Notes under the pieces: model-generated
What the model saw: the letters and a program-made list of their open reading frames with translations, nothing else
Databases searched by the model: none
Told to the model about the DNA's origin: nothing
Part shown: positions 1 through 39,244 of the stretch, in pieces
How the letters are laid out: the number at the start of each line of letters is the position of its first letter
Numbering within the stretch: the first letter of the stretch is position 1
Program-made: the position numbers and the translations under genes
Source: Phascolarctobacterium sp.
GTDB taxonomy: Bacteria > Bacillota > Negativicutes > Acidaminococcales > Acidaminococcaceae
Reading direction: 5' to 3'
Assembly (NCBI GenBank): GCA_017457085.1
Contig: JAFTID010000048.1
Span: forward strand, 4,893 to 68,892
DNA length: 64,000 nt

Positions 1-110
1 AACATTTCCTCTTTGGGTTTTACACATTGTTGAATGAAAAATAAATCGTACTAATTCCGAATAAGAGTAAAATTTTATATAAAACTTTCGAAATTTTTTT
101 AGAAAATAGC

Positions 111-141
111 TTGACAATATACTGGGTATATACTTTACAGT
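111..141 (+). promoter_or_regulatory. Regulon-type promoter P1 (19-bp spacer with dyad)
   Basis: TTGACA-ATATACTGGGTATATACTT-TACAGT. The spacer is exactly 19 bp and carries TATATA half sites. An A-rich tract lies upstream. Confidence 0.5.
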
Positions 142-544
142 ATGATTAAGGAATAAATCAATATTTCGCATAAGAAACTCAGGATAAAGAAAGTTAAAGA
201 GGTTCACAACATCACAACATCTTTAGCTGAAAACTGATTGTTTCAAAATAGCGTTAGCTACCTGCTTACGACGGAAGATGTGAAAACTGCTAATTCTGTT
301 TATGTGAGAGTGGCAAAATTACAGTGGAAACATTTCTTGATGCGAACTTCATGCTTGCCGAAGCTAGCATCTACTTTCCCAAGTGACAGGGCGAAATATT
401 GGTTTCCTTTGACAAAGAGAACAAGCAACTTGGACACTTGCTTACGCATATAATAAATGCTGTTCTGATAGAATTGAAATTTACTCTTCTACTTTCTCCT
501 CTCCTCTCTCAAAGTGCATTCTGTAGGGGTGCAGCAATGCCAAG

Positions 545-2836: not shown

Positions 2837-2867
2837 TTTTAAATAGGAATTCTTACTAAAAAACATA

Positions 2868-2898
2868 TTGACTGTACAATTGCTATATAGGCTAAAAT
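2868..2898 (+). promoter_or_regulatory. Regulon-type promoter P3
   Basis: TTGACT-GTACAATTGCTATATAGGC-TAAAAT, 19-bp spacer. Confidence 0.5.
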
Positions 2899-2956
2899 AT
2901 TAGCAGTCACAAAAGAACATTCTAGTTAAGCCAAAACTTCACTCTCACAAATCTTG

Positions 2957-5118: not shown

Positions 5119-6348
5119 TTAAATATAACCTATGGGTATTACTTTATCATTACCTTTGAGTGTCAATAAGTTTTCGTATGTGCAAACAACTCCTCCATTA
5201 CCTCGTTTCATACCGGGAATATTGTCTAAAATATCAAATGTCTTAATATCAGCAACTTTTGGGTCAGAATGCTTCTTGATTTCAATGGGATATAAATTGC
5301 CATTATCTTCGATTAGCAAATCAATTTCTTTTTGCTCTTTGTCACGATAAAAGTATAGTGCTGGCTCTAAAATACCTTTGTTATAGTAACTTTTAATTAT
5401 TTCAGAAACAACAAAGGTTTCAAAGAAGGCGCCTGCCATTGCACCATTTTTTAACACGTCAGGAGAGTTCCACTTAGTAAGGTATGCAGCAAGACCAGTA
5501 TCTAAGAAGTATAACTTCGGAGTTTTTACTGCTCGTTTTAAAACATTGTTAGAATATGGTCTAAGCAGGTAAACAATATTGGAAGTTACTAAAATGGATA
5601 ACCATCGTTCTGCTGTAGCGTTGCTAATGCCAACATCTCTCGCTAATGAAGCTAGGTTTAGCAATTGACCTGTTATACTTGCTACAGCAATCATAAATTT
5701 TATGAACAATACTTCGTCGCCAACTTGAGTAAGCTCTCTTACGTCACGTTCAATATAAGTTTTGACATAGGAAGCATAAAATATTTGCCAATCAAATTCT
5801 GGGTTAGCGACTAAATCAGGCATACTTCCTCTATGGATTATTTTCCAAAGCTCGTCATAATCCGTATGAGTTTCATACGAGCTTCTGCTTGTGAAATATT
5901 CTTCTGTTGGCAAGAAGGGAGTTGAAAAATCTATACCCTTGCGTTCACGCATGGAAATTCCTAAAAGGTTTAGCACGCCCAATCTTCCTGCTAAAGATTC
6001 ACTAACGTTTTTCATCAGCTTAAACTGTTGAGAGCCTGAAAGATAAAATAATCCCTTCTCCTTTTTAACATCAACATACATCTTGATGTACGGAAATAGA
6101 TGAGGAGCATATTGAATTTCATCAACAAATACCGGTGGCTTAGCATCTTTGAAAAACGTACTGGGTTCTTCTACTGCGGCTTGTAAGCGCAAAGGGTCAT
6201 CCAAAGTTACATAGGTGATATTGCCAGTAAAGTTGCGTAACAATGTAGTCTTTCCTACTTGTCTAGGGCCAACAACAATAATTGCGCCAAACATTTTTGA
6301 AACCATGGTAAGAATCTTTTCTAAGTGTCTATGGATATACATAAGCAA
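5119..6348 (-). CDS. AAA+ ATPase (AAA_14 / DUF4143-type ATP-binding protein)
   Basis: 409 aa with Walker A GPRQVGKTT. The overall layout is typical of DUF4143 ATPases. A paralogous type occurs at 28838. Confidence 0.75.
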   Translation of the reverse strand: MLMYIHRHLEKILTMVSKMFGAIIVVGPRQVGKTTLLRNFTGNITYVTLDDPLRLQAAVEEPSTFFKDAKPPVFVDEIQYAPHLFPYIKMYVDVKKEKGLFYLSGSQQFKLMKNVSESLAGRLGVLNLLGISMRERKGIDFSTPFLPTEEYFTSRSSYETHTDYDELWKIIHRGSMPDLVANPEFDWQIFYASYVKTYIERDVRELTQVGDEVLFIKFMIAVASITGQLLNLASLARDVGISNATAERWLSILVTSNIVYLLRPYSNNVLKRAVKTPKLYFLDTGLAAYLTKWNSPDVLKNGAMAGAFFETFVVSEIIKSYYNKGILEPALYFYRDKEQKEIDLLIEDNGNLYPIEIKKHSDPKVADIKTFDILDNIPGMKRGNGGVVCTYENLLTLKGNDKVIPIGYI

Positions 6349-6429
6349 TTCTCCGACTAATTTATTATCTAATAATATATTAGTCGAAATTTTTGGCTTT
6401 TACAAGTGATTTCTTAAAGAATTTCCCTC

Positions 6430-6460
6430 TTGACACAATAGCAACTATATACCTTATCAT
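6430..6460 (+). promoter_or_regulatory. Regulon-type promoter P4
   Basis: TTGACA-CAATAGCAACTATATACCT-TATCAT, 19-bp spacer. Confidence 0.5.
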
Positions 6461-6491
6461 CTTAGCCAAGGGCATAGATTATTTTAAAAGC

Positions 6492-6536: not shown

Positions 6537-7514
6537 ATGGGAAAAGATTTCAATAAAGTTTTTGGAGCCATCAAATTTTTGCTGGTATTTGTAATTTGCG
6601 TAGGCGTTCTGCTTTGCACAGGCTGTTCTAAAAAAGAAAGCACTACTGAAATTTTAAAAGAAGGTGGCTACACTGTAACGGACTTTACCAACACGAAGCT
6701 TACCTTTTCAGAAAAACCACAGCGAATTGTATCGATGTCTATTGGTACTGACGAGATACTTCTAGATTTGGTACCACTAAACAGAATTTTAAGCGTTACT
6801 TATTTGGCAGATGATGGTGGTATTTCCAATATCGTTGAGCGTGTAAAAAGCATTCCTAATCGTACCCACGGTAATACTCCTGAAAGCGTAATTGGTCTTA
6901 ACCCTGATGTGGTACTTATTTCTGACTTCTTCCCTCCCGAAAGTTATCAGACCTTGCGGGAAATGGGGATGAAGGTGTACGTTTACAAGACTCCTTCTAA
7001 TTTTGAAGAGATTAAGGCTTCAATCTTAGAGCTTGCCCAAGTTGTAGGTGAGCTGGAAAAAGGCAAGCAGATGGTTGCGGAAATGGATGCTCGCATTCAA
7101 AAGGTGCAGAAAAAATTAGGAGACATTAAGGAAAAGCGCAAGGTTCTCTTCATGCACGCAATGGGAGCCTACTATTCTCCGGACGGAACCTTTAGCGATA
7201 CTTGTCGCCTTGCCGGCGTGGTAGATGTTACCCAAAGCTTGAACTATTCCCAAACCTGCACTCTTTCTCAAGAAACCATAGTGCAGTTAAATCCGGATAG
7301 CTTCGTTATTGGCGATTGGAACTTTGATGGGGAACATAGTCCTGAAGATTTAAAGGCAGAGCTTTTATCCAACCAGTCTTATATGACGACCAATGCTGGT
7401 AAAAATAAAAGCATTATTGTCATTCCATCAGCCCACCTTCTGACTTGCTCACAACAATTCGTTTTAGGAGTGGAGGATATGGCGAAAGCCGCTTATCCTG
7501 AAAAATTCCCTTGA
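6537..7514 (+). CDS. ABC-type periplasmic substrate-binding protein (FecB/BtuF-like, iron-siderophore/heme/cobalamin class), orphan
   Basis: The ATG at 6537 is preceded by GGAAGGTG, whereas the track start at 6519 is TTG. Signal peptide with a CTGC lipobox-like site. KPQRIVSMSIGTDEILLDL and the C-terminal AKAAYPEKF are shared with the PBPs at 12284 and 35572. Confidence 0.8.
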   Translation: MGKDFNKVFGAIKFLLVFVICVGVLLCTGCSKKESTTEILKEGGYTVTDFTNTKLTFSEKPQRIVSMSIGTDEILLDLVPLNRILSVTYLADDGGISNIVERVKSIPNRTHGNTPESVIGLNPDVVLISDFFPPESYQTLREMGMKVYVYKTPSNFEEIKASILELAQVVGELEKGKQMVAEMDARIQKVQKKLGDIKEKRKVLFMHAMGAYYSPDGTFSDTCRLAGVVDVTQSLNYSQTCTLSQETIVQLNPDSFVIGDWNFDGEHSPEDLKAELLSNQSYMTTNAGKNKSIIVIPSAHLLTCSQQFVLGVEDMAKAAYPEKFP

Positions 7515-7541
7515 CTATATAACTACTATATAGTGTATAGT
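7511..7541 (+). promoter_or_regulatory. Regulon-type promoter P5 (perfect 8+8 dyad)
   Basis: TTGACT-ATATAACTACTATATAGTG-TATAGT, with ACTATATA-N5-TATATAGT perfect. The stop codon of the PBP gene lies inside the -35. Confidence 0.6.
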
Positions 7542-7575
7542 GTAGCTTACCAAATAATATAAAGAGGTGAAAATT

Positions 7576-7893
7576 ATGACCTGTACCCATCCGAAATATG
7601 AACTTCCCAACGATCCCCATGCTAAATATCGCTATGAGAGCGCTATGAAACATGTGGAAGCTGCTAAAGCTGCTGGTAAATCTAGCGAAGAAATCCATGC
7701 TATCTTTAAAAAAGTTATGGAATTTGATCCGAAAAACATCGATGCTATTCCCAATGACGAAGCTCATGCAAAATATCGTAGTGCAATGGTGCACATGCAA
7801 AAAGCACTTGCCAACGGTAAAAGTGTAGAAGAAGCTCACGAAATTTTTGAGAAAATTAAAAGCGGCAATACCTCTGGTCACTGTAAGCAATAA
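7576..7893 (+). CDS. Small cytoplasmic His/Cys-containing protein with an internal tandem duplication, function unknown
   Basis: The ATG at 7576 follows SD AAGAGG by 8 nt. Two repeats of about 45 aa (PNDPHAKYRYESAMKHVEAAKAAGKSSEEIHAIFKKV and PNDEAHAKYRSAMVHMQKALANGKSVEEAHEIFEKI), with an N-terminal CTH and a C-terminal GHC. Confidence 0.6.
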   Translation: MTCTHPKYELPNDPHAKYRYESAMKHVEAAKAAGKSSEEIHAIFKKVMEFDPKNIDAIPNDEAHAKYRSAMVHMQKALANGKSVEEAHEIFEKIKSGNTSGHCKQ

Positions 7894-7895
7894 AA

Positions 7896-7944
7896 AGAAG
7901 TCCCAAGCTGATTAGTCTAAACGATTAATCCTTGGGACTTTTTC
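7896..7944. terminator. Bidirectional terminator between convergent genes
   Basis: AAGTCCCAAG...CTTGGGACTT stem flanked by A and T runs. Confidence 0.65.
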
Positions 7945-8790
7945 TTATTTCTTTTTAACATTGAGGAAGATTTTATTAATGTATTCGTTGGTGTCCTTAT
8001 AGAACAAGTGGTTTTCAATGGTGAGTATGTAAATATCACCACTGGCTTCTAATTCGTTTAATTCCATAAATTTGTTGATTATATCTACAAGCTTAGGGAA
8101 GTTTTGGTAGAAGGTACCTTTAAAATAAATTTCCAGATATAATCCGGCAGGAATTTTTATCATGGACTTTGCTTTATGTTTAGGTGTGTTCAGAACAAAG
8201 GAGAAGTAAGCTTTCGTGGGATGGTAGTCTCGTTTTACAAACAAGTCATCTTGGGAGATTATCCAACCAACGTGACGTTCCAGAGATTTTTTGTTGTGGA
8301 AAGTATGTTGGGCATGCTTTGTAAATAAAACTACCCTGTCTTTACCAGTATCTTTGCTGTAAACGGGGGTAACCTTCATCAAGCGTTCTTCTTGGAATGT
8401 AAGCAAAGGCTTGAAAAAAACGAAAGGTCTCTCGCATTTTGCAATGTCGTTGATGGCTTCTAAAGATTTTATGATGGCTTGGTTTTCTTTGATGATAGCC
8501 ATACATTCTTTTTCTTTGCGGGCAACCAAGTCAATAAATTCATTTTTGCTACGGTTTTCAAGATAAGTTTTTATATCAGGTATGCTGATATTGAATGAGC
8601 GCAAGTTAACAATGATTTCTAAATCTAAATATTGTTGGATGGAATAATGCCTATAGCCTTTTTCGCAAATAAAATCGGGTGAGAGTAGGCCAATTTTGTC
8701 ATAATACAACAAGGTTTGCTTAGAGATACTAAAAAGATTTGCCAGTTCTCCTGCTGTGAAATAGGCATCGTCAGAATTATTGTTGCTCAT
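7945..8790 (-). CDS. MerR-family transcriptional regulator with a C-terminal GyrI-like effector-binding domain (BmrR/TipA-like architecture)
   Basis: 281 aa. The N-terminus YFTAGELANLFSISKQTLLYYDKIGLLSP...GYRHYS is a MerR HTH, followed by a coiled-coil linker. The C-terminus IPAGLYLEIYFKGTFYQNFPKLVDIINKFMELNELEASGDIYILTIENHL resembles GyrI-like domains. Confidence 0.8.
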   Translation of the reverse strand: MSNNNSDDAYFTAGELANLFSISKQTLLYYDKIGLLSPDFICEKGYRHYSIQQYLDLEIIVNLRSFNISIPDIKTYLENRSKNEFIDLVARKEKECMAIIKENQAIIKSLEAINDIAKCERPFVFFKPLLTFQEERLMKVTPVYSKDTGKDRVVLFTKHAQHTFHNKKSLERHVGWIISQDDLFVKRDYHPTKAYFSFVLNTPKHKAKSMIKIPAGLYLEIYFKGTFYQNFPKLVDIINKFMELNELEASGDIYILTIENHLFYKDTNEYINKIFLNVKKK

Positions 8791-8807
8791 AAAGATTTCA
8801 CCTACCC

Positions 8808-8838
8808 TTGACTATATAACCAGTATATAGTTTAAAAT
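8808..8838 (+). promoter_or_regulatory. Regulon-type promoter P6 (perfect 8+8 dyad), divergent from the MerR gene
   Basis: TTGACT-ATATAACCAGTATATAGTT-TAAAAT, 19-bp spacer. It starts 18 bp from the merR-like start codon on the opposite strand. Confidence 0.6.
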
Positions 8839-8860
8839 TAAAAATAAATCTATGTAGGAC

Positions 8861-8889
8861 ATTGTATCATATTCATAATCGTATTGCAA
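8861..8889 (-). promoter_or_regulatory. Candidate canonical promoter of the MerR-like gene
   Basis: On the - strand: TTGCAA, 17 bp, TACAAT. The resulting transcript would read through the P6 dyad before the start codon at 8790. Confidence 0.4.
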
Positions 8890-8907
8890 AATGTTAGGGG
8901 GATTTTT

Positions 8908-9714
8908 ATGAAAAAGATTGCTATATATGGTAAGGGTGGCATTGGTAAATCTACAACGACGGCAAATGTGTCTGCTGCATTGAGCGAACAAGGCTTTAAG
9001 GTTTGCCAAATTGGTTGCGACCCTAAAAATGATTCCACACGTTTGTTGCTGGGAAGAATTTGCACCCAAACAGTTTTAGATGTTGTACGTGATAAAGAAG
9101 AAGTTTTAGCGGAAGATATTGTGCATATTGGCTACAACGGAATTAAGTGCGTGGAAGCTGGCGGTCCTGAACCGGGAGTTGGCTGTGCAGGACGTGGTAT
9201 TATTGTTGCTTTAGAAAAACTTCGTTCTTTAGACGTCATCGAAGACGAAGATGTTTTGCTTTACGACGTTTTAGGTGACGTGGTATGTGGTGGCTTTGCC
9301 GTGCCTATTCGTGAAGGCTACGCTACTGATATTTATATTGTTTCTTCCGGTGAGCTAATGAGTCTTTACGCTGCCAACAATATTGCCAAAGGCGTGAAGC
9401 GTTTTGCTTTGCGTGGTGGAGTTCGATTGGGCGGCATTATCGGTAACAGCCGTAACACTCCCAACGAAAAGAATTTGTTGGAAGAATTTGCCAAACGTTT
9501 AAATACAAAACTGATTGCCTTTATTCCCCGTGATGTTGTTGTGAATAAGGCAGAAAATAATCGCCAAACTGTTTTGCAATACGCACCGGAAAGTGAGCAA
9601 GCACAAATCTATCGTAATTTGAGCAAGGTGCTTGTGGAAAATGCAGAGCTTTCCGTGCCTACGCCAATGACCTTTGAAGAATTAGAAAAGCTGGTTGAAA
9701 AATATGGGAATTAA
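8908..9714 (+). CDS. Nitrogenase iron protein-like ATPase (NifH/BchL/CfbC family)
   Basis: The ATG at 8908 follows AGGGGGA. P-loop GKGGIGKST, switch I CDPKNDS, and both 4Fe-4S cysteines in GVGCAGRG and DVVCGGFAVP. Confidence 0.9.
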   Translation: MKKIAIYGKGGIGKSTTTANVSAALSEQGFKVCQIGCDPKNDSTRLLLGRICTQTVLDVVRDKEEVLAEDIVHIGYNGIKCVEAGGPEPGVGCAGRGIIVALEKLRSLDVIEDEDVLLYDVLGDVVCGGFAVPIREGYATDIYIVSSGELMSLYAANNIAKGVKRFALRGGVRLGGIIGNSRNTPNEKNLLEEFAKRLNTKLIAFIPRDVVVNKAENNRQTVLQYAPESEQAQIYRNLSKVLVENAELSVPTPMTFEELEKLVEKYGN

Positions 9715-10996
9715 AACGAAACGTTTTATCAATATTAGAAAAAGTTGTAGCTGCAGTATGCCCGGCGTGTGGCGAGCAGTTGCTTATATGGATGGTGTGG
9801 TTGTAATTTTTCACAGTCCCCGTGCGTGCGCGCATATTGCTCGTACCATGGATATCAATACTCATTATCGTGCTATGGGTGATGGTAGAAAAGAAGAACG
9901 TGCTTCCGTACCCTTGCTGTCTAGTCAATTAGAAGAAAAGCATTCCATTTTTGGTGGCATAGATAGATTGAAGAAGTGTATTGCCTACGCTATAGAAAAG
10001 TACGCTCCTCAATGCTTGGTACTGGGTGGTTCCTGCGTTGCCGGTGTAATTGGTGACGATGTGGAAGCTGTAGCCAAAGAAGTTGAGGAAGAATATAATT
10101 TGCCAGTCATTACGGTGGATAGCTACGGATTTTTAGATGGGGAATTTTTTGAAGGCTACTTTGAAATTACTTATAAATTGATTGATAGATATTTATATCC
10201 GCAAAAGTATATTCCCAAAACAGTTGTGCTGATTGGGGATAATGGTGGGCCGTGGGGACATTACGCCACAGAGGTTACAAGAATTTTAAAAGCAATGGGG
10301 GTTACTGTCATTGGACAGTTCCCTGGCTATATTACTCTTGAAGATTTACCGAAGATTACCAGTGCGGAAGCAATGGTAGTTTTAGGTGGTAAGGGGAATA
10401 CTCACGAAGGTCTTGAGTGTTTGACGAAGCGTTTGCAGGAAAAATTTGGCTTTAAATTTTTGCAGGACGTCTATCCTGTTGGCTGGCAAAGAACTCAGCA
10501 ATGGATTATTGAGATGGGCAAGCTGTTAAATTGTGAAGAACAGGCTGAAGAAGTTTTGCAGGCAGAGCGCCTTCTTATGGAGAAAAGCTTGGCACAATTT
10601 TTACCGGTTACTAAAAATAAAAAGGCTACTCTTTGCATTGGTAGGTGGTTGATGTACTTCCATCCAGAATCTATGCTGGGTGTGATTAATGCCTTGGAGT
10701 TAGATTTACAGGGAATAGTTTTGCTGGATGCGTTGGAAGCAGGCTATTTTGACGAGATGGTAGGCGCTTTGCGGAAGTATACCGATGTTCCTATTTACTC
10801 TAATCTTGACGGGGAACACTTACTGAAAGAAGCAGATGTAGTGCTGACAACTCACGAATTGCAGGATAAAAACTTAAAGCAGGTTTTCCTGCCCATGCTT
10901 CCCAAGGTGGGAACCCTCGGTGAAATTGAATTTATGCAAGTTATTTACAGAGTGCTGTGCAGTAAGCACAAGGGCGGAGGTTTAGTTTATGTATAG
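9695..10996 (+). CDS. Nitrogenase component-1-type oxidoreductase, alpha-like subunit (NifD/NifE/BchN family)
   Basis: 433 aa, overlapping the nifH-like stop (alternative start at 9704). Cys pattern C20-x24-C45 plus GGSCVAGVIGDD, typical of this family. Confidence 0.8.
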   Translation: MKNMGIKTKRFINIRKSCSCSMPGVWRAVAYMDGVVVIFHSPRACAHIARTMDINTHYRAMGDGRKEERASVPLLSSQLEEKHSIFGGIDRLKKCIAYAIEKYAPQCLVLGGSCVAGVIGDDVEAVAKEVEEEYNLPVITVDSYGFLDGEFFEGYFEITYKLIDRYLYPQKYIPKTVVLIGDNGGPWGHYATEVTRILKAMGVTVIGQFPGYITLEDLPKITSAEAMVVLGGKGNTHEGLECLTKRLQEKFGFKFLQDVYPVGWQRTQQWIIEMGKLLNCEEQAEEVLQAERLLMEKSLAQFLPVTKNKKATLCIGRWLMYFHPESMLGVINALELDLQGIVLLDALEAGYFDEMVGALRKYTDVPIYSNLDGEHLLKEADVVLTTHELQDKNLKQVFLPMLPKVGTLGEIEFMQVIYRVLCSKHKGGGLVYV

Positions 10997-12287
10997 CAAT
11001 AACCAATGGGGAAATATTTGTCATAGAGTTGACTGCTGTGCATTAAGTGGAGCTGCTGCCTTTGTGGCAGGCATTCCTGATGCAGAAATTTTGGTGAATG
11101 GTCCGTTGTGGTGTTACTTTTACGCATTACGTACTTTGGAACACGCTAAGTACGATATGGGGGAGCGCTTTCACGATTGTCAGCCCGATAATAATGCAAT
11201 TGTCTATGGAACGGAAAAGTTTTTGACGGAAGCTTTGAAGCGTTTGCTGGATAGTGGTCGTAAGCCTTCACTTTTATTGGTAGAAAATAGCTGCTCACTT
11301 AGTTTGATTGGCGATGATTTAGCAGGCATCGTTCGTAAAATGGAACTGCCTTATCCCTTTGTAACCATGGATTGCGGTGGCTTGGTTGGTGGTTTTGCCG
11401 AAGGTTATACCAAAGCGGCACTTGCTGTTTTGAAAAAATTTGCTGTTGAAAAGGTTGAAACCGTAGAAAACAGAGTAAATGTTTTAGGCTTAAGTGATTT
11501 TTATTACAACGGTATTGCTGATAGAAATGAAATAATTCGCTTGCTGACTAAGGCAGGCTACGAAATAAATGCTGTTCCCGGTGCGGGAAGCAGTTTGGAA
11601 AATTTACAAAAGATTGCTCGTGCTAAGCTAAACATTGTCTGCAACGAAGAGCTTGGCTTGCAATTGGCACAGTGTTTGGAAAAACGCTTTGGTACTCCTT
11701 ACGTTGTAGCAGGTATGCCTTACGGAATTGAGGACACTAAAAATTGGTTAACACGTATTCACGAAGCACTGCCTTGTGAAAATTTACAAGCAGTTTTTGA
11801 TGAAGGCACTGCTCAAATGGAACGCTTAACTGCTAAAGAAAATGACTATCGTGGTGTGTGGGGAAGCCTTTGGTTTGATAAGGTTATTCTTTCGGCAGCG
11901 GGGACCCAAGCTTTGTGTATGGCGCAGGCTTTACGTAACGAGTGGTTAGATATAGGAGAACTTACCGTAATTTGCCAACACGAGGTCAAAAGTGCAAACT
12001 ACTGCGACGTGGCAGATAAAGTTCTGGTCACTGGTAAAGATGTTGATGAAATTGAAAGGCTCTTCCAAAATGCAGAAGACGTATTACTTTTTGCGAGTAG
12101 CAGTGAAGCCAGCAATTTACGTCGTCGCGGGGCAACTTTTTACAGCTGTAACATTGCCTATCCATCAGCTGACGAAGTTTTACTGACGGAAACTCCCTTT
12201 GTGGGAATCAAGGGTGCGGCGCATATGCTAGAGCGTTTGTGGAATGTATATATTAAAAAACAAATGGATGAGCAGGTGAATAAATGA
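10989..12287 (+). CDS. Nitrogenase component-1-type oxidoreductase, beta-like subunit (NifK/NifN/BchB family)
   Basis: 432 aa, overlapping the upstream gene by 8 nt. Cys pattern C17-x24-C42 plus ENSCSLSLIGDD. Confidence 0.75.
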   Translation: MYSNNQWGNICHRVDCCALSGAAAFVAGIPDAEILVNGPLWCYFYALRTLEHAKYDMGERFHDCQPDNNAIVYGTEKFLTEALKRLLDSGRKPSLLLVENSCSLSLIGDDLAGIVRKMELPYPFVTMDCGGLVGGFAEGYTKAALAVLKKFAVEKVETVENRVNVLGLSDFYYNGIADRNEIIRLLTKAGYEINAVPGAGSSLENLQKIARAKLNIVCNEELGLQLAQCLEKRFGTPYVVAGMPYGIEDTKNWLTRIHEALPCENLQAVFDEGTAQMERLTAKENDYRGVWGSLWFDKVILSAAGTQALCMAQALRNEWLDIGELTVICQHEVKSANYCDVADKVLVTGKDVDEIERLFQNAEDVLLFASSSEASNLRRRGATFYSCNIAYPSADEVLLTETPFVGIKGAAHMLERLWNVYIKKQMDEQVNK

Positions 12288-13255
12288 AAAGATTGTTATT
12301 AATCTGCTTAATGCTATTTCTGGTTTGTCTTACTGGTGGCTGTGGCACACAAGAACCAGTTAATAATTCTGTACAGGAGAAAGTTGCTTACGAGGTTATT
12401 GATGAAGCTGGCAGAAAATTGACCTTTACAGAAAAACCTCAGAGAATTGCTTCCCTTACCTATGGCACAGATGAAATATTAACAGATTTAGTAGACACGA
12501 AACGAATTGTTGGCTATAGTCGTTGGGCTGGTGACCCGGAGATTACATTTATCACTAAGGAACAGGCACGTAAAGTTGGAAGGAAGCTAGAAGAAAATAC
12601 AGAAGCTGTTTTATCTGTTAAGCCTGATTTGGTGGTGGCGACCACTGCTTCCAATAGCGAAGTAATACATTCACTAGAGGCTTTAGGGTTAAAGGTGTAT
12701 TTAGCCGGAAGACCTAAAAACTATGAACAAATGAGAGTTAAGGTTTTAAAGCTTGGTGAAGCCGTTGGGGAAAAAGCCAAGGGTGAAGAGTTAGTAAAAC
12801 AAATGGACGAACGCATTGCCAAACTGGAAAGTAAGCTTTGCAAAATTCCTGATGATAAGCGTAAAACTGTTGTTGCCTTTAATTTTATTTCAGCTATGGG
12901 GCGCAAGGGTGATTTGATTGATAATATGCTAAACATGGCTCACGTTATCAATGGTGTTGCGCAAATACCTAATGAATTTATGACTAGCTATGTTAGCAAA
13001 GAGCAAGTAGTACGTATTAATCCAGATATTTTTCTTTTACCTACATGGAATTATGACAATAGACAGGATATAGAAGGATATCTTAATAGAGTACAGAATG
13101 ACCCTGCCTATAAAGACGTTAAAGCCATAAAAAATAATCAAATCAAATTTGTTTCGGATAAATATCGTTATGTAGCAAGTCATCATATTGTGGATGCGGT
13201 TGAAAATTTTGCTAAAGCTGTTTATCCGGAATATTTTAGAGGTGAAAAATATTGA
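12284..13255 (+). CDS. ABC-type periplasmic substrate-binding protein (FecB/BtuF-like), probable lipoprotein
   Basis: 323 aa with signal peptide ...LTGGCG. KPQRIASLTYGTDEILTDL and AKAVYPEYF match its paralogs. ATGA overlap with the upstream gene. Confidence 0.85.
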   Translation: MKRLLLICLMLFLVCLTGGCGTQEPVNNSVQEKVAYEVIDEAGRKLTFTEKPQRIASLTYGTDEILTDLVDTKRIVGYSRWAGDPEITFITKEQARKVGRKLEENTEAVLSVKPDLVVATTASNSEVIHSLEALGLKVYLAGRPKNYEQMRVKVLKLGEAVGEKAKGEELVKQMDERIAKLESKLCKIPDDKRKTVVAFNFISAMGRKGDLIDNMLNMAHVINGVAQIPNEFMTSYVSKEQVVRINPDIFLLPTWNYDNRQDIEGYLNRVQNDPAYKDVKAIKNNQIKFVSDKYRYVASHHIVDAVENFAKAVYPEYFRGEKY

Positions 13256-14289
13256 TTGTTAAAAGAAAGAATAGTGGTCTTGCGCTGATTGTGTTAGGTA
13301 TTGTTCTGGTAATAGTTGCTTTAGGCTCACTAACCTTTGGGCAAATTGATGTGCCTTTGGAAAGTACGCTGGCAATTATTTGTGGAAAGTTAGGCTTACC
13401 TTTTATTAATGAAGGAAACTTCACCAAGGAACAGCTTGCTGTCATTTGGTTTATCCGTATGCCACGTATGCTGGTTGGCTTGCTTGTAGGTGCAACCCTT
13501 GGTATTTCCGGTGCAGTAATGCAGGGCATTTTTAGTAATCCCTTGGCAGACCCCGGTCTAATTGGCGTTTCTGCAGGGGCGGCGACTGGTGCAGTACTTT
13601 CTATTGCGCTGGGTAGTGCTACAAGTAGTATGTACACTATGCCCGCTTTTGCCTTTTGCGGAAGTATTTGCGCCGTGTGCTTGACAGTTTTCCTTGCCAT
13701 GCGCAATGGCAAGATTCCTGTAATGACCTTGCTCCTCGCTGGTGTTGCCGTTGGCATGCTTTTAGGCGCAGTAACTTCTGGTTTGCTTACCTTTATGAAT
13801 GAGCAAAAGCTACAACAATATTTGTTCTGGATGGTTGGCGGTCTTGACTATCGTCGTTGGGAACATGTTTACCTTGCAGTTGGCCCCGTCCTGACAGGCA
13901 TTTTCATAATGCTTTTGATGGCTCGTCATTTAAATATCTTAGTACTTGGGGAAACAGAAGCCAAGGCTGTGGGAATGCCTGTTACTGCTTTCCGCATGGG
14001 TTTGCTTTTCGTATCTGCCATGACTACGGCAACTTCTGTTTGCGTAAGTGGTAGCATTGGTTTTGTTGGGTTGGTCATTCCCCACATGATGCGCATGCTG
14101 CTTGGTCCGGACCATCGCGTGTTGTTACCGGCAAGTGCTCTTGGTGGCGCTATGTTTTTAGTTTTGTGCGACACTTTGGGCAGAATAGTTATTCCTCCCT
14201 CCGAAGTTAGGGTAGGTATAATGACTGCGCTTTTAGGTACACCCTATTTCTTATATTTGCTTAGAAGAATGCAAAAGCAATTCTTCTAG
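13252..14289 (+). CDS. FecCD/BtuC-family ABC import permease
   Basis: 345 aa, polytopic. Contains GISGAVMQGIFSNPLADPGLIGVSAGA and a C-terminal GIMTALLGTPYFLYLL, both typical of FecCD permeases. Confidence 0.9.
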   Translation: MIVKRKNSGLALIVLGIVLVIVALGSLTFGQIDVPLESTLAIICGKLGLPFINEGNFTKEQLAVIWFIRMPRMLVGLLVGATLGISGAVMQGIFSNPLADPGLIGVSAGAATGAVLSIALGSATSSMYTMPAFAFCGSICAVCLTVFLAMRNGKIPVMTLLLAGVAVGMLLGAVTSGLLTFMNEQKLQQYLFWMVGGLDYRRWEHVYLAVGPVLTGIFIMLLMARHLNILVLGETEAKAVGMPVTAFRMGLLFVSAMTTATSVCVSGSIGFVGLVIPHMMRMLLGPDHRVLLPASALGGAMFLVLCDTLGRIVIPPSEVRVGIMTALLGTPYFLYLLRRMQKQFF

Positions 14290-14302
14290 AATTGAGGTAA
14301 AA

Positions 14303-17300
14303 ATGAGTAAGATTTTATTTTTGACAAACGTTATCCGTCGTATGGGAATGATGCAGCAAACTGTGGAACGTTTGCAACGTGAGCAAAAGGTTAGCAATGA
14401 TTGTGCTTGCCATTGGATAACAGATCAAACCGTATGGGATAAAAAATGGGAAGAAAACCTGCGTACTACGGACGTTGTACTTTTAAAATGGATGGGTAGC
14501 GGTTTGGACACACCTTTTCTGAAAAAATTAGTACAGTTTTTAGATGCACGCAAAATTCCTTATTACATAGATGCTGCTGGTACTAATGAAGGCGAGCTGA
14601 AATTTGGCTTCACCCCTGAACAGCTGGCAGCCTTGAAAAAATATACTTCCTTTGGCGGCGAGCGTAACTACTATAATTTGTGGCAGTACCTTGACCAATG
14701 CTTGGAAGGTAAAGGCAAAGAGATTGAAGCACCTGACCCGATTCATTGGTGCGGAATTTATCACCCCCGTGCGAAAAAGGTTTATACAGATTTGGCAGAA
14801 TACCAAGCGGATTTCTGCGATGCTTCTAAACCGACTATTGGTATGCTTTTCTATCGTGACGAATGGGTTTGGGGAGATTTAACTTACCAAAGCGCAACCA
14901 TCGAAGAAATTGAAGCCCAAGGTATGAACGCAATTTGCGTATTCAGTAATGGTATGCCCATTGAAGAAATGGGGATGCCTAGCTTGACAAAAGTTTTTGA
15001 TAGCTTCTTCTGCAAAGATGGAGTGCCTGCCATTGATGCTCTTATCAATGTAATGAAATTTTCATTGAGCAGTAGCGGTACTATTACCGTAGACTATTTC
15101 AAAAAATGGAACGTGCCTATTTTGGCAGGCTATACCATTATGACTGACTATGATGAATGGAAGGAAAGTTTCGAGGGGATGAATCCCATGGAAGTTTCCA
15201 TTGCCATTTCCTTACCAGAATTTGACGGAACCATCCACGGCGTACCCATTGGTTACAAAAAAGTTTTGGAAAATGGTGACGTGCGTTACTTGCCCATCGT
15301 AGAACGCGTTCAACGTATGGTAAGTAAGGCTCGCAAATGGGCAAGCCTGCGCCGTAAGGCTAATGCAGATAAAAAAATTGCTATTATCTTCCATAATTAT
15401 CCGCCCCGTAATTCCAATATTGGCAGCGCCCTTGGCTTGGACACCATTGAAAGTATCCGTCGTGTGTTGGTTGCAATGAAAGAACGTGGCTACAAAGTGG
15501 ATAGTATTCCGGAAGATACTAAGGAATTTATCAAGGAGCTTACCTCCAACGCTACCAATGACAAGGCGTTGCTGACAGAAAAACAAATTGCCGAAGCCCA
15601 AAAGATTACAGGCGCTGAATATAAAAAATTCTTTGCTACCATTGAACCCAAGGTACAAGCACAACTTATTAAAGATTGGGGCGAAGCACCGGGAAGCGTT
15701 ATGGAATATGATGGCGACCTGTTGGTACCGGGAACTATGAACGGCAATGTTTTTGTTACGGTGCAACCACCTCGTGGTTTTGGTGATGATCCTAGCAAAA
15801 TTTACCATTCTCCTTACTGCGCACCTACTCATCATTATTTAGGGTTCTATCGTTGGGTGCGTGATATTTGGCAAGCAGATGCTGTTGCTCATATTGGTAC
15901 TCATGGTTCCTTAGAATGGTTGCCAGGCAAAAACGCAGGTCTTGACTGCACCTGCTATCCTGATTTGGCATTAGGTGACCTGGTTAATATTTATCCCTAT
16001 AATATTGCGATTACCGGCGAGGGTATTCAGGCAAAACGTAGAGGTGCTGCCTGCTTGATTGAACATTTGCCTGCTCCTCAAAGCAAGGCAGATGTTTATG
16101 ACGAGCTGGAAGAACTGGAAAAAATTATGGATGAGTACGTGCATTTTGAAACTACTCAACCGGAAAACTTGCCTAGTTTAGAAGCACTGGTAAAAGAAAA
16201 GGTTGTTGCTGCCAATTTGCAGGATGAAGTTGAATATGACGAAAGCAAACCTTTTGGCGAATATGTAATGGCATTGCACAACTACATTACAGATTTAAAA
16301 AACCTTGAAGTACACGTTGGCTTACATATTTTGGGGCAACCTCCTGTTGAGGAAGGCTTGACTGAATATTTGTGGATGCTTACCCGTCTTAACAATGGTG
16401 ACATTCCTAGCTTGAGCCAAGCGTTGTCCCAATACTATGGCTTTGATTACTACTATTTGCTGGAAAACAGCAGCTTGATTTACGAACCACTGAATATTAC
16501 CTACGCAGTATTGCTTGATAAAATTACAGACCAAAGCCAAGAGATTATCAAGATTTTGCAGGACAAAGATTTTAGTGCAGTAGCCTTGCAGGAAGTTTTG
16601 GCATTGACTTGGGTACAGGAAGGCAGTGCTGAATTTAAGGAACAGCTGGAAAAAGTTTGCACTTATATTTGTGAAACAATCTATCCTAATTTACAGCTCA
16701 CTACCCAAGAACAAGACAATATGCTTCGTGGCTTTGAAGGTCAGTATGTAGAACCTGGTCCTTCCGGAGCACCCACTAGTGGTTGTGCAGATTTACTGCC
16801 TACTGGTCGCAACTTTTATGGCGTAGACCCGCGCACCTTGCCAACTCCTGCGGCATGGGAAATTGGCAAAACCTTGGGTGACCAAGTTATTGAACGCTTT
16901 ATTGCGGAAGAGGGTCACTATCCAGAAAATATCGGTATCGTATTGTGGAGTGGGGCCAATATGCGCAGTCATGGTCAATGCGTGGCAGAATTCCTCTATC
17001 TGATGGGCGTACGCCCCATTTATCAAGCAGGCAGTATGCGTGTTAATGGCTTGGAACCTATTCCTTTGACAGAACTGCGCCGTCCCCGCATTGACGTTAC
17101 TGCAAGAATAAGTGGCTTATTCCGTGATACCATGCCTACCATTATGGAACTCCTTGACCAAGCAACGCTGCTTGTTGGTGGTTTGGACGAAGATTTGGAA
17201 CTGAACTATGTGCGTAAGCATTTACTGGCAGATAGTGCAGAGCTGGAAGCTGAAGGTATGAGCAAGGAAGATGCTTGGCGACAAGCTGCCTTTAGAATTT

Positions 17301-18022
17301 TTGGCGACGAGCAAGGCGTTTATGGTGCAGGTGTTGCGGCTTTACTGGAAGCTAAGAACTGGGAAACCATTGACGACATTGCAGAAGTTTATGTGCGTTG
17401 GGGTGGTCATGCTTACGGTGGCAAGGTTAAGGGTAAATTCTTGCCCCAACAATTCCGTAAACGTATGGGCAGCTTAGACATTACTATTAAAAATGAAGAC
17501 AATCACGAAACTAATATGCTTTCCAGTGATGACTACAACGCTTATCACGGTGGTATGATTGCTGCCGTTCGAAGCATTAAGGGTAGTGCGCCTCGTTCCT
17601 ACTGTGGTGATAGTACGGACAGAAGCAAAATTAAAATGTATAGCGTGCAAGAACAAGCTAAACGCATTTTCCGCAGTGAATCCATTAATCCTAAATATAT
17701 TGAAGGCATGATGAAGCATGGCTACAAAGGCGCAGCAGATTTGGCAAATATGATTGCTCACAGTTATCAATGGGATGCGACCAGCGCTGTCATGGAAGAT
17801 TGGATGTACGAAAAGTACGCAGAAAAATATACCTTCGATCCCAAGGTGCAGGAATGGTTGCGTGACGTGAATCCTTGGGCATTGCAACGTATGGCAGAGG
17901 TTCTTCTGGAAGCAGAAAAACGTGGCTTGTGGAATGCGAAGCCTGAAACTAAGAGCGAGCTGCAAAAATTGTACCTTTCCATCGAGGGCGAGATTGAGGA
18001 ACGCAGTGATGCAAACTCCTAA
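14303..18022 (+). CDS. cobN: CobN/ChlH-family large chelatase subunit
   Basis: 1239 aa with the family hallmark GTHGSLEWLPGK. Size and layout are typical of CobN. Confidence 0.9.
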   Translation: MSKILFLTNVIRRMGMMQQTVERLQREQKVSNDCACHWITDQTVWDKKWEENLRTTDVVLLKWMGSGLDTPFLKKLVQFLDARKIPYYIDAAGTNEGELKFGFTPEQLAALKKYTSFGGERNYYNLWQYLDQCLEGKGKEIEAPDPIHWCGIYHPRAKKVYTDLAEYQADFCDASKPTIGMLFYRDEWVWGDLTYQSATIEEIEAQGMNAICVFSNGMPIEEMGMPSLTKVFDSFFCKDGVPAIDALINVMKFSLSSSGTITVDYFKKWNVPILAGYTIMTDYDEWKESFEGMNPMEVSIAISLPEFDGTIHGVPIGYKKVLENGDVRYLPIVERVQRMVSKARKWASLRRKANADKKIAIIFHNYPPRNSNIGSALGLDTIESIRRVLVAMKERGYKVDSIPEDTKEFIKELTSNATNDKALLTEKQIAEAQKITGAEYKKFFATIEPKVQAQLIKDWGEAPGSVMEYDGDLLVPGTMNGNVFVTVQPPRGFGDDPSKIYHSPYCAPTHHYLGFYRWVRDIWQADAVAHIGTHGSLEWLPGKNAGLDCTCYPDLALGDLVNIYPYNIAITGEGIQAKRRGAACLIEHLPAPQSKADVYDELEELEKIMDEYVHFETTQPENLPSLEALVKEKVVAANLQDEVEYDESKPFGEYVMALHNYITDLKNLEVHVGLHILGQPPVEEGLTEYLWMLTRLNNGDIPSLSQALSQYYGFDYYYLLENSSLIYEPLNITYAVLLDKITDQSQEIIKILQDKDFSAVALQEVLALTWVQEGSAEFKEQLEKVCTYICETIYPNLQLTTQEQDNMLRGFEGQYVEPGPSGAPTSGCADLLPTGRNFYGVDPRTLPTPAAWEIGKTLGDQVIERFIAEEGHYPENIGIVLWSGANMRSHGQCVAEFLYLMGVRPIYQAGSMRVNGLEPIPLTELRRPRIDVTARISGLFRDTMPTIMELLDQATLLVGGLDEDLELNYVRKHLLADSAELEAEGMSKEDAWRQAAFRIFGDEQGVYGAGVAALLEAKNWETIDDIAEVYVRWGGHAYGGKVKGKFLPQQFRKRMGSLDITIKNEDNHETNMLSSDDYNAYHGGMIAAVRSIKGSAPRSYCGDSTDRSKIKMYSVQEQAKRIFRSESINPKYIEGMMKHGYKGAADLANMIAHSYQWDATSAVMEDWMYEKYAEKYTFDPKVQEWLRDVNPWALQRMAEVLLEAEKRGLWNAKPETKSELQKLYLSIEGEIEERSDANS

Positions 18023-19052
18023 AATAAAAAACTTGGTGCTAAGTTTAACAGGACAATGTAATTTTGCTTGTCGCTACTGTTACGCTGCAGAGCACGATAA
18101 AAACATAATGAACGTAGAAACTGCTCTTGCCGCCATTGATTTGGCGGTAAGTAGTTTACCCGTCAATGAAAAGTTCATTATTCAGTTTAGTGGTGGTGAA
18201 CCTCTATTAAATTTTAAGGTCTTGCACGCGGCGGTGAGCTACGTTCAGAAAAATAATATACCTGCCGTTTTGCAAATTCAGACTAATGGTTCGCTCTTGA
18301 CTGACCAAATTGCTCAGTATCTTTTTAAAAATAAGGTTGCCATTGGGGTAAGTCTTGATGGTAAACCTAACGTGAACGATAAATTGCGTTTGACCAAGGA
18401 CGGAAAAGGGGCAACCAATTTAATCTTACACGGTTTGGAAGTTTTGAGGCGTAATAACATTGCCTGCGGTCTTACCTGCGTGGTAACGGCAGATAATGTT
18501 GAGGAACTTTCAGGAATTGTGGATATAGCTTATTTTTTGGGCAACGTGCGTAAGATTGGCTTCGATTTATTGCGAGGACAGGGGCGTGGCAGCGGACTAG
18601 TACCTCCTTCGGAAGCACAAATGTTAAAAAGTATGGAAGAGGTTTACGAACGGGTAGAGCAGTTAAGTAGATTGGCAGGCTATAAAATTGTTATCTCCCA
18701 AGCAGAAAGGGCAAAGCTTCTGTGTACGGAAAGCTGTCGACAGTTTGGACATTGCTACGCTATGAACGGAGAAGCTGCCTTTGTAGATGCCAGTGGTAAA
18801 ATTTACGCCTGTTCTTCCTTGATTGGCAACGAGGATTTTTATCTTGGCAATGTGCAGGACGGTTTAGACAATGCGCTTGTAGAAAAGGTAAGTAAGAAAA
18901 TTTTTCAGAGTATGTCCTTTTGCAGGGAGTGTGCAGATTTTAAATTGTGTGGAGGCGGCTGCTTCGCCCGTTGGTACGGGAGTGGGGAGAAAGTTGCCTA
19001 CAAAAGCGAGTGCGCAATGAAGCGTGTTTCCATTGGGCAGATAAAATCATAA
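18009..19052 (+). CDS. Radical SAM enzyme with a SPASM domain (anaerobic sulfatase maturase / AhbD / NirJ-like class)
   Basis: The ATG at 18009 overlaps the cobN stop, and the track's 5' extension lies inside cobN. CNFACRYC (CxxxCxxC) at the N-terminus and CRECADFKLCGGGC near the C-terminus. Confidence 0.85.
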   Translation: MQTPKIKNLVLSLTGQCNFACRYCYAAEHDKNIMNVETALAAIDLAVSSLPVNEKFIIQFSGGEPLLNFKVLHAAVSYVQKNNIPAVLQIQTNGSLLTDQIAQYLFKNKVAIGVSLDGKPNVNDKLRLTKDGKGATNLILHGLEVLRRNNIACGLTCVVTADNVEELSGIVDIAYFLGNVRKIGFDLLRGQGRGSGLVPPSEAQMLKSMEEVYERVEQLSRLAGYKIVISQAERAKLLCTESCRQFGHCYAMNGEAAFVDASGKIYACSSLIGNEDFYLGNVQDGLDNALVEKVSKKIFQSMSFCRECADFKLCGGGCFARWYGSGEKVAYKSECAMKRVSIGQIKS

Positions 19053-19096: not shown

Positions 19097-19117
19097 CATT
19101 CTTGTGAAAAATAAGTG

Positions 19118-19148
19118 TTGCGTATATAGGAAGTATATAGTTTATAAT
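19118..19148 (+). promoter_or_regulatory. Regulon-type promoter P7
   Basis: TTGCGT-ATATAGGAAGTATATAGTT-TATAAT, 19-bp spacer. Confidence 0.55.
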
Positions 19149-19201
19149 CAGACGTATATCTTGATAAGAATAATTACTAAACGTTAGGAGCGAGTGAGAA
19201 A

Positions 19202-20233: not shown

Positions 20234-20247
20234 AAGGAGCATGCGGA

Positions 20248-22179: not shown

Positions 22180-22197
22180 AGAAGGAGAAATCAGAAG

Positions 22198-26522: not shown

Positions 26523-26638
26523 GCAGATTTCTGTTTATATATAAACTCTCATTATATTTTATGCTGAGTAATCTACAGGCAAGCCATTTATGGGTACTTG
26601 AAAAGCATACAAAAAAATTTTTAAGGAGATGAACTTTA

Positions 26639-30236: not shown

Positions 30237-30253
30237 ACATTTTAAAAATATGC

Positions 30254-30284
30254 TTGAGTATATAACAACAATATAGTTTAGAAT
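30254..30284 (+). promoter_or_regulatory. Regulon-type promoter P8
   Basis: TTGAGT-ATATAACAACAATATAGTT-TAGAAT, 19-bp spacer. Confidence 0.55.
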
Positions 30285-30328
30285 GTATGTGTTAAAAATT
30301 CTAATAGTATGAAGTTGGAGGTTTCCAG

Positions 30329-30950: not shown

Positions 30951-31071
30951 TTCTTGTCTTTTGCGTTGCTTTGAGGCAATGTGGTATAATTAATAATGAA
31001 AGAAATTACTTGTGTTTTGGTGTAAGTTTTATCGAAATTAGGGTAAAGTTTGTATGCGAGGAGAATGCCTT

Positions 31072-32675: not shown

Positions 32676-32764
32676 ATGTGTTTAGATTTTTTCTGTTACC
32701 ATTTATTCAAACCAGTTCCTAAAACAAGCAATAAATCTTTTTGAGAACTATTCTCAAAAAATGC

Positions 32765-32795
32765 TTGCGTGTATAGTAACTACATAGTTTACAAT
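32765..32795 (+). promoter_or_regulatory. Regulon-type promoter P9
   Basis: TTGCGT-GTATAGTAACTACATAGTT-TACAAT, 19-bp spacer. Confidence 0.5.
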
Positions 32796-32808
32796 GATAC
32801 GCAAGTAC

Positions 32809-39229: not shown

Positions 39230-39244
39230 TTAAGGAAATTCAAG

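Follow-up and report, generated by a model that had tools for sequence, protein, structure and literature searches.

MerR-family regulators and the control of B12 genes

An invariant 19-base-pair (bp) spacer between a good -35 and a good -10 element marks promoters whose two elements have to be realigned by a MerR-type activator. In the mer operons of Tn501 and Tn21, the promoter and start site of merR overlap the operator dyad. In BmrR of Bacillus subtilis, another member of the family, a buried glutamate, E253, binds lipophilic cations, which is a property of BmrR itself and not of every GyrI-like regulator. Two further kinds of MerR-family protein belong to the world of corrinoids and cobalt: CarH/LitR proteins have a B12-binding domain and are light-released repressors, and CoaR, with a CbiC-like domain and a Cys-His-Cys motif, controls a cobalt exporter and is proposed to read the B12 pathway through this precorrin-isomerase-like domain. 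Neither CarH/LitR nor CoaR is known to have a GyrI-like domain or to control genes of B12 synthesis or uptake. For those genes, cobalamin riboswitches are the near-universal means of control in bacteria. Here, we consider a MerR-family gene, merR, in a stretch of 64,000 nucleotides from Phascolarctobacterium sp. (assembly GCA_017457085.1, contig JAFTID010000048.1, positions 4,893 to 68,892 of the forward strand; "the window" below means this whole stretch, and positions are counted from its first letter). We think it likely that merR encodes a BmrR-type activator with an organic effector, one that switches eleven promoters of a corrinoid and cobalt gene island of the Negativicutes.

How does this locus compare with the described systems? 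A winged helix-turn-helix (HTH), a predicted long dimerisation helix and a dyad within a 19-bp spacer at all eleven sites place the regulator in the MerR family. Within the family, BmrR of B. subtilis, along with EcmrR of Escherichia coli and BrlR of Pseudomonas aeruginosa, has the same length and three-part architecture and is the best structural match, and the BmrR operator is likewise pseudo-palindromic, sits inside a 19-bp spacer and overlaps the -35 element. However, identity to BmrR is about 20%; the position of E253 is hydrophobic here, and other polar residues are conserved instead; the output, where BmrR has one efflux pump, is eleven promoters over about 60 kilobases (kb) of genes for corrinoids, cobalt and tetrapyrroles; and the regulator gene is divergent from its target, with its own predicted promoter beyond the operator. 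The BmrR subgroup is also characterised by an adjacent multidrug efflux gene, and in this locus the neighbours are nif-like and CobN genes and a gene for a histidine-rich protein.

The likeness to mer is one of layout. Regulator and target are divergent and share one operator, the spacer is 19 bp long, the dyad is centred on spacer base 8 (about 8.5 in PmerT), and autoregulation would be expected in both; in contrast to mer, the predicted regulator promoter lies off the dyad, a GyrI-like effector domain stands in place of the Cys3 metal site, and one regulator would serve eleven promoters. With CarH/LitR and CoaR, the locus shares a MerR-type DNA-binding domain tied to corrinoids and cobalt. 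With cobalamin riboswitch regulons, it shares the kinds of gene that are controlled (a cbi operon, BtuB-type receptors, BtuF, CbiZ and cobalt transport), but control here would be exerted by a putative DNA-binding protein at the promoter, and one member keeps a riboswitch. Literature searches turned up no account of this regulator, nor of any B12 regulon under MerR-type control in Negativicutes; the nearest neighbours of the target genes that are discussed in the literature are the CobN-like proteins of the hmu/btu loci of Bacteroides.

A BmrR-type protein with a GyrI-like domain

The gene and the domains of its product, as drawn from Pfam, AlphaFold and Foldseek, are as follows.

7945 to 8790, minus strand: merR, the regulator gene, an open reading frame (ORF) of 281 residues with its ATG at 8790
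Residues about 11 to 79 of the regulator: winged-HTH domain
Residues 82 to 118: long helix, predicted to dimerise as an antiparallel coiled coil
Residues about 125 to 281: GyrI-like effector domain

The DNA-binding domain is recognised from sequence. The Pfam MerR_1 profile matches residues 11 to 79 (expectation value, E, 2.4e-11), the Pfam MerR profile is also above its cut-off (E 1.5e-8), and a MerR-type HTH was found by Pfam in all 38 aligned relatives. A six-frame hmmsearch of the 64-kb window with the family profile returned this ORF as the sole MerR-family member, as the first-pass annotation, made from the letters of the window, had stated. The rest of the protein is best seen in an AlphaFold model, computed from an alignment of the 38 relatives, that has a mean predicted local distance difference test score (pLDDT) of 86. 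In this single-chain model, residues 82 to 118 form a helix of 37 residues (pLDDT about 90 to 96) that superposes on that of BmrR, and the C-terminal domain has a duplicated beta-beta-alpha-beta pattern. Among solved structures, the top match by sequence is full-length B. subtilis BmrR, colinear over residues 8 to 271 (E about 3e-7), and the top Foldseek match of the model is again full-length BmrR (E 7e-16, template modelling score 0.68), followed by EcmrR and BrlR. Submitted to Foldseek in isolation, the C-terminal domain matches the BmrR drug-binding domain (1bow), CTR107, SbmC/GyrI and Rob. The Pfam GyrI-like profile reaches E 0.07 in the regulator itself, under its cut-off, and is found in 12 of the 38 relatives, with a best E of 8e-6; in one Clostridia homologue (L061), E is 3.8e-7. 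The earlier annotation had put a GyrI-like domain at the C terminus and had agreed to give up its reading should that domain prove to be something else; the domain stands, weakly by sequence and clearly by predicted structure and Foldseek. Thus, the model confirms the regulator as a BmrR-type MerR protein with a GyrI-like C-terminal fold.

What the effector domain might bind is constrained by its conserved residues. BmrR E253 pairs with I255 in the phmmer alignment, and this column is hydrophobic throughout the regulator family, which suggests a ligand chemistry unlike that of BmrR. In its stead, the C-terminal residues that are invariant or nearly so comprise the polar K150, R152, H159, H165, E220, N260 and H261, as well as W176 and Y270, the last being the equivalent of BmrR Y268. 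A single cysteine, C96 in the middle of the helix, is conserved, and the metal-sensor cysteine cluster is absent. Given that the regulator lacks the cysteine ligand set of metal-sensing MerR proteins, an organic ligand is favoured over a bare metal ion, in agreement with what had been proposed at first. Neither a B12-binding domain nor a CbiC-like domain was detected in the regulator by Pfam and NCBIfam scans.

We also considered a metal sensor, since the best NCBIfam matches are of the ZntR and CueR kind, and rejected it: these matches score 28 to 40 bits against cut-offs of 143 to 168 and cover the N terminus only, and the identity is further ruled out by the absent cysteine motif, the length of 281 residues and the GyrI-like C-terminal domain. 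Metal-sensing MerR proteins (MerR, CueR, ZntR, CadR) are about 130 to 150 residues long, with Cys/His metal ligands placed where the dimerisation helix ends and in the loop after it.

Eleven promoters with one operator

Based on a position weight matrix (PWM) for the element, the window holds exactly eleven sites, the number that the first-pass annotation had given, all on the plus strand and all in one register, in which a -35 element, a 19-bp spacer with the dyad and a -10 element follow one another. These 33-mers score 25 to 47 bits, whereas no site in 20 shuffles exceeds 16 bits; the dyad pattern alone has 10 matches in the window vs 0.52 expected. The eleven sites, with the genes behind them, are listed here.

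110 to 142, plus strand: P1, then a 485-nucleotide stretch without an assigned role, then P2
625 to 657, plus strand: P2, before CbiZ and a TIM-barrel gene
2867 to 2899, plus strand: P3, before a TonB-dependent receptor
6429 to 6461, plus strand: P4, the weakest site (25 bits), before a BtuF-type binding protein
7510 to 7542, plus strand: P5, with the second perfect dyad (7514 to 7534), before the gene for a histidine-rich protein of 105 residues at the 3' end of merR
8807 to 8839, plus strand: P6, the MerR-type promoter of the nif-like/CobN operon; -35 TTGACT at 8808 to 8813, 19-bp spacer, -10 TAAAAT at 8833 to 8838; kept in orthologous loci
8811 to 8831, no strand: P6 operator, a perfect 8-5-8 dyad, ACTATATA-ACCAG-TATATAGT
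19117 to 19149, plus strand: P7, before ChlI-like, ChlD-like, HlyD, AcrB and TonB-dependent receptor genes (operon 19202 to 28522)
30253 to 30285, plus strand: P8, before an uncharacterised 183-residue protein
32764 to 32796, plus strand: P9, before a TonB-dependent receptor, an uncharacterised 185-residue protein, a binding protein, an ATP-binding cassette (ABC) ATPase and CbiK
38531 to 38563, plus strand: P10, the highest PWM score, before energy-coupling factor (ECF)/CbiQ transporter genes and a complete cbi operon through BtuR and CbiC (59549)
59726 to 59758, plus strand: P11, before a cobalamin riboswitch and then a TonB-dependent receptor
59825 to 60006, plus strand: cobalamin riboswitch aptamer (RF01689 37.9 bits vs a gathering threshold of 36.5; RF00174 28.3 bits, E 0.003)

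The genes behind these promoters form a coherent island. The P6 operon (8908 to 19052) encodes NifH/D/K-like proteins, a BtuF-like binding protein, FecCD, CobN and a SPASM radical-SAM enzyme. Taken together, the island has de novo cbi genes, CbiK, CbiZ, a CobN/ChlI/ChlD chelatase, nitrogenase-like reductase genes, the SPASM radical-SAM enzyme and the 105-residue protein; for transport, it has four or five TonB receptors and BtuF, FecCD and ECF transporters, as well as a resistance-nodulation-division (RND) pump and an ABC exporter. Ten of the eleven promoters have no riboswitch behind them, and most of their leaders are too short to hold one. The cobalamin riboswitch behind P11 is the only one detected in the 64 kb; it was missed by the whole-window Rfam search in gathering mode and found by sensitive rescans. 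By its sequence, the P11 receptor would be under dual control, by a MerR-type promoter and by a riboswitch.

At eleven sigma-A-type promoters, we propose, a dimer of the regulator would bind the 21-bp dyad ACTATATA-N5-TATATAGT within the spacer, which at 19 bp is over-long. The dimer, when in one of its ligand states, would untwist and shorten this spacer, so that the -35 and -10 elements become co-aligned and transcription starts, as in the MerR-family paradigm. In this model, the regulator would be the master switch of the island.

The operator travels with the regulator

If merR encodes the protein that reads these sites, operator and protein should be found together elsewhere, and they are. 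The regulator has a 97% identical orthologue in a Phascolarctobacterium metagenome-assembled genome (MAG) from water deer, relatives in Succiniclasticum, Dialister and Schwartzia, and homologues of 24 to 29% identity in Clostridia. Of 35 related loci, 32 have a high-scoring site upstream of the regulator gene in divergent orientation; they span the Acidaminococcales, Veillonellales, Selenomonadales and Sporomusa as well as 27%-identical homologues in Clostridia. The operator is usually 49 to 82 bp from the regulator start, and 215 to 304 bp from it in a group of paralogues. Sporomusa rhizae and Pectinatus have the same divergent operator-regulator pairing, and in Dialister the operator arms are of the ACTGTATAG type. 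In an alignment of nine orthologous intergenic regions, the arms of the P6 dyad are invariant and the 5-bp centre is variable; P5, for its part, is kept beside merR in 17 related loci.

In the Clostridia homologues, the operator follows the same consensus and faces MatE efflux genes. Given that the same operator accompanies homologues with other targets, the DNA specificity appears to be old and to travel with the protein, with the target genes having changed, and this suggests that the corrinoid regulator descends from a drug-efflux regulator. In the Clostridia and metagenome loci in question (L061, L063, L064; L109, L128, L113, L148, L171), the operator-promoter faces MatE or, in some, a gene of about 460 residues beginning MAENKILIKNAAA.

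An unbiased scan for TTGACTATATA-N5-TATATAGT in metagenome contigs yielded 115 oriented matches, 69 of which have a TAnnnT -10 element at 19 bp. Homologues of regulon genes follow 46 of these 69 (35 ChlI-like, 6 NifH-like, 2 TonB receptors, 2 unk209 and 1 CbiK), the equivalent of P7 being the commonest match in the scan; MatE follows 5 of the 69, and 13 are accompanied by a divergent MerR-family gene. Neither a regulon gene nor a MerR gene was found near the 46 of 115 matches that have no -10 element. Together, these observations make the regulator very probably the cognate binder of the dyad.

The predicted merR promoter and possible autoregulation

The 117-bp intergenic region between merR and the divergent nifH-like gene (8791 to 8907; ATG of the nifH-like gene at 8908) holds P6, its operator and two further features on the minus strand.

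8791 to 8807, minus strand: merR-proximal gap, 17 nucleotides between the P6 -35 and the merR ATG, with the ribosome-binding site AGGTGA inside; too short for a promoter
8861 to 8889, minus strand: predicted merR promoter; -35 TTGCAA at 8889 to 8884, 17-bp spacer, TG at 8869 to 8868, -10 TACAAT at 8866 to 8861

Several statements of the first-pass annotation concern this region. The start of the MerR gene does lie 18 bp from the -35 of P6 (ATG at 8790, first -35 base at 8808), and P6 does carry a perfect dyad, which overlaps the final three bases of the -35. P6 is not, as had been claimed, uniquely the best copy of the operator: the dyad of P5 is equally perfect, and the PWM scores of P10 and P11 are at least as high. 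The promoter with a 17-bp spacer at 8861 to 8889, said to transcribe across the dyad, has the sequence described, and its extended -10 beyond the operator is conserved. As for the mer-like layout, with merR/merT as the model, what stands is that divergent genes share one operator (in 32 of 35 loci), and what falls is the overlap of promoter and dyad known from mer, as the predicted merR promoter does not overlap it; no minus-strand promoter overlapping the dyad passed the promoter scan.

Nearly every syntenic orthologue has the extended -10, TGnTAnAAT, at the equivalent position, and the nine aligned sequences show no variation in it; only close relatives keep the -35 TTGCAA. A gap of 16 to 17 nucleotides between the P6 -35 and the regulator ATG is conserved in most orthologues as well. 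Since the conserved extended -10 lies beyond the operator and a gap of 16 to 17 nucleotides leaves no room for a promoter, the merR transcript would cross the dyad. The -10 of merR sits 22 bp outside that of P6, and the distance between the two -10 boxes is 21 to 22 bp in close relatives, 35 to 36 bp in P. succinatutens and about 10 to 15 bp in Succiniclasticum. The group of paralogues has no such arrangement, lacking a conserved extended -10 beyond the operator.

Based on these positions, we infer transcript starts near 8845 for P6 and near 8853 for merR. The public RNA runs provide contigs that were assembled from relatives and are undirected; both merR and the nif-like genes appear among them, although starts cannot be placed on such contigs; in the P. 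succinatutens locus, contigs span the whole region without resolving transcript starts. One metatranscriptome contig covers 8665 to 8843, that is, the 5' end of merR and the dyad, and coming undirected from a relative of 90 to 95% identity it is weak evidence.

How might the regulator then control its own synthesis? The merR mRNA would start about 22 bp before the dyad and read across the operator, which would occupy about +22 to +42 of the predicted leader. The merR promoter and P6 would stand face to face with overlapping polymerase footprints, and a bound dimer and an activated P6 would both be expected to damp synthesis of the regulator. Because the predicted merR promoter lies outside the dyad, autoregulation would proceed by roadblock or by competing RNA polymerase footprints and not by simple occlusion. 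We regard such autoregulation, by roadblock or promoter competition, as plausible from the arrangement of the sequence elements.

What does the regulator sense, and is it the only one?

Several points weigh against a BmrR-type activator, encoded by merR, as the switch of all eleven promoters. The match to a merR promoter is on its own not significant (9 promoter-like sites vs 5.7 +/- 2.2 expected), so that only its conservation carries weight. The RNA evidence consists of undirected contigs from relatives that are 90 to 95% identical. The glutamate E253, a ligand contact in BmrR, aligns with a hydrophobic residue here, and the chemistry of the pocket therefore differs. A paralogue that is 46% identical to the regulator, with a near-identical HTH and a similar operator of its own, is encoded in the same MAG as the 97% orthologue. 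Finally, ligand-activated synthesis and uptake of B12 is a non-obvious logic for a pathway that is normally repressed by its end product.

The last point bears directly on the ligand. The riboswitch behind P11 is turned off by complete cobalamin, and complete cobalamin is therefore unlikely as an inducer. An incomplete or foreign corrinoid, a precursor, a signal of B12 need or a reversed logic would fit with the P11 riboswitch. The likeliest effector candidates would be a corrinoid or tetrapyrrole that is not complete cobalamin, or else B12 in a reversed role, switching off an apo-activator. The gene content of the regulon makes a corrinoid or tetrapyrrole attractive, as the first-pass annotation had guessed; that the ligand is one at all we put forward tentatively. 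In its fullest form, the idea would be that the GyrI-like domain directly senses a corrinoid or cobalt-tetrapyrrole (cobinamide, cobyric acid, a metal-free corrinoid, or cobalamin in reverse) and that the regulator is a B12 sensor acting on DNA, which across the Negativicutes has for the most part taken the place of B12 riboswitches as master regulator of the synthesis, remodelling and uptake of cobamides; this too we would call possible and somewhat doubtful.

A serious competitor, to which we give appreciable weight short of an even chance, is that the effector is no tetrapyrrole or corrinoid: the regulator would have kept BmrR-like sensing of a small planar or amphipathic molecule, with the corrinoid island merely its output. 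The candidates would be the lower-ligand base of a cobamide or a phenolic, an aromatic compound from bile or diet, or a metabolite that signals a need for B12. GyrI-like pockets usually hold small planar molecules and are usually too small for a cobamide of 1.3 kDa; the nearest structural relatives of the regulator bind small aromatic cations or dyes (BmrR, EcmrR, CTR107, and BrlR with pyocyanin); MatE efflux pumps are the targets of distant family members that share the operator; and the regulon itself holds an RND pump and an ABC exporter. Yet the C-terminal domain is strongly conserved among Negativicutes and has invariant residues of polar character, a picture that differs from a promiscuous hydrophobic pocket, and every regulated operon is tied to the handling of corrinoids, cobalt or tetrapyrroles.

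Could the logic be reversed? The ligand-free dimer would then be the activator, and a complete cobamide or cobalt-corrinoid would convert it to a repressing form, replacing the riboswitch at the level of DNA. This would make sense of an activator-type promoter ahead of genes for biosynthesis and uptake, it is coherent with a B12-off riboswitch behind P11, and it would account for ten of eleven regulon promoters doing without a riboswitch on leaders mostly too short for one. We nonetheless consider it unlikely: no MerR/GyrI-like protein is known to act in this way, the regulator has no B12-binding motif or domain, and the P11 riboswitch would be redundant if B12 already shut off P11 through the protein.

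A different kind of doubt concerns which protein occupies the sites. Three MAGs hold two family members each (L005/L037, L006/L028, L007/L039). The paralogue (L037, L028, L039, L023, L024) is 46 to 49% identical to the regulator and divergent from a TonB receptor, with its operator 215 to 304 bp upstream. With an HTH so nearly identical, the eleven sites may be shared with, or belong to, the other protein, and the two regulators would probably have one DNA specificity in common, with different effector domains. A paralogue encoded elsewhere, or both proteins as homo- or heterodimers, might then mainly serve the eleven sites, leaving the gene in the window in control of just its two adjacent promoters. 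The presence of two family members in each of those three MAGs, the near identity of their HTH regions and the shared consensus of the paralogue's own operator speak for this; we still rate it improbable, given that a single family locus is listed in several genomes (e.g., P. succinatutens YIT 12067, Succiniclasticum ruminis and Dialister, whose assemblies, where incomplete, may hide a second copy) and that this single copy has the syntenic position of the window gene, with regulon sites nearby. Least of all do we believe that the repeated element is a lineage-specific strong promoter with an AT-rich palindromic spacer and no dedicated regulator, next to a MerR gene by coincidence, for although AT-rich palindromes are common in low-GC genomes and 46 of the 115 metagenome dyad matches come with neither a -10 nor related genes, the spacer keeps its 19 bp at all eleven sites and in further genera, a MerR-family gene goes with the element in different orders and even in Clostridia, and both dyad arms are conserved while the 5-bp centre varies.

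Significance

The BmrR-type activator that we favour is familiar in architecture and mechanism; what would be new is a large, coherent regulon and presumably a new class of ligand. Phascolarctobacterium, Dialister, Succiniclasticum, Sporomusa and their relatives are abundant organisms of the gut and rumen, and their succinate-to-propionate metabolism is B12-dependent. If the regulator is confirmed, their cobamide economy would follow a different control principle, and if it does sense a corrinoid, this would be the first tetrapyrrole-class ligand for a GyrI-like fold. Cofactor metabolism seems to have taken over a regulator of drug efflux, one that is linked to MatE in Clostridia and has the same operator there. 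The regulon also groups genes whose role is puzzling, namely, the nitrogenase-like reductase, CobN/ChlID beside CbiK, the SPASM radical-SAM enzyme and the 105-residue protein. The operator motif is sharp enough for the regulon to be mapped in any Negativicutes genome, and the protein-operator pair might serve as an inducible switch once its ligand is known.

The histidine-rich neighbour and other features of the window

The gene behind P5 and the sequence between it and merR are the closest neighbours of the regulator on its 3' side.

7576 to 7893, plus strand: small108, encoding the 105-residue protein with a four-helix model; behind P5 and the most conserved member of the regulon
7898 to 7940, no strand: inverted repeat AAGTCCCAAG...CTTGGGACTT, read from the sequence, between the convergent small108 and merR

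The small108 protein is 63 to 96% identical across Negativicutes (Sporomusa, Pectinatus, Methylomusa, Dialister), with seven to eight invariant histidines, a C-terminal GHC(K/H) tail and a four-helical model of pLDDT 83. Searches found no Pfam or NCBIfam family for it, no sequence relative among solved structures and no PDB fold match. Its gene is almost always beside the regulator gene and has its own operator. Across genera, the conserved core next to the regulator consists of small108, the CobN operon and TonB receptors; nif-like genes are absent from the loci of Succiniclasticum and Dialister. We regard small108 as a candidate metal-binding partner of CobN, the metal possibly being cobalt.

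The inverted repeat may act as a bidirectional terminator of small108 and merR. The terminator scanner, for which the loop is too long, did not report it. In relatives, about 900 extra bases lie between small108 and merR (L005, 10846 to 11749; a contig joint in run X1), and in the window the same place holds only the 50-bp inverted repeat, at 7894 to 7945.

Behind P1, at 143 to 624, about 485 nucleotides hold no credible ORF or Rfam match. The 97% orthologous MAG (L005) has this layout in common with the window, and distant relatives do not. The stretch could be an RNA of an unrecognised kind or the remnant of a gene.

Some genes behind the other promoters deserve comment. The longest-ORF start of the TonB receptor behind P9 (32794) overlaps the -10 of the promoter, and its Plug domain starts about 25 residues further in than those of the other receptors; both point to a true start codon further downstream. 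The first two genes behind P10 (209 and 551 residues; 38600 to 40900) have no Pfam or NCBIfam family, precede the genes of the ECF-type ATPase and CbiQ, and are conserved in other Acidaminococcaceae (L041, L042, L102); their products may be novel components that capture the substrate for an ECF transporter of cobalt or corrinoids. The NifH-like protein of the P6 operon scores just under the cut-offs for both nifH and CfbC. CobN/ChlID and the nif-like genes occur here in an anaerobe that also holds CbiK and a full cbi operon. An assignment of CobN as a haem dechelatase of the HmuS type was considered and is not favoured, true CobN (7c6o) matching at E 3e-213 vs a partial match to HmuS at E 7e-124.

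Between the regulon operons lie two AAA_14/DUF4143 ATPase genes and a Schlafen/AlbA_2 gene with a Fic-like C terminus (5119 to 6348, minus strand; 28838 to 30175, plus strand; 31054 to 32556, plus strand), which look like insertions unrelated to corrinoid metabolism.

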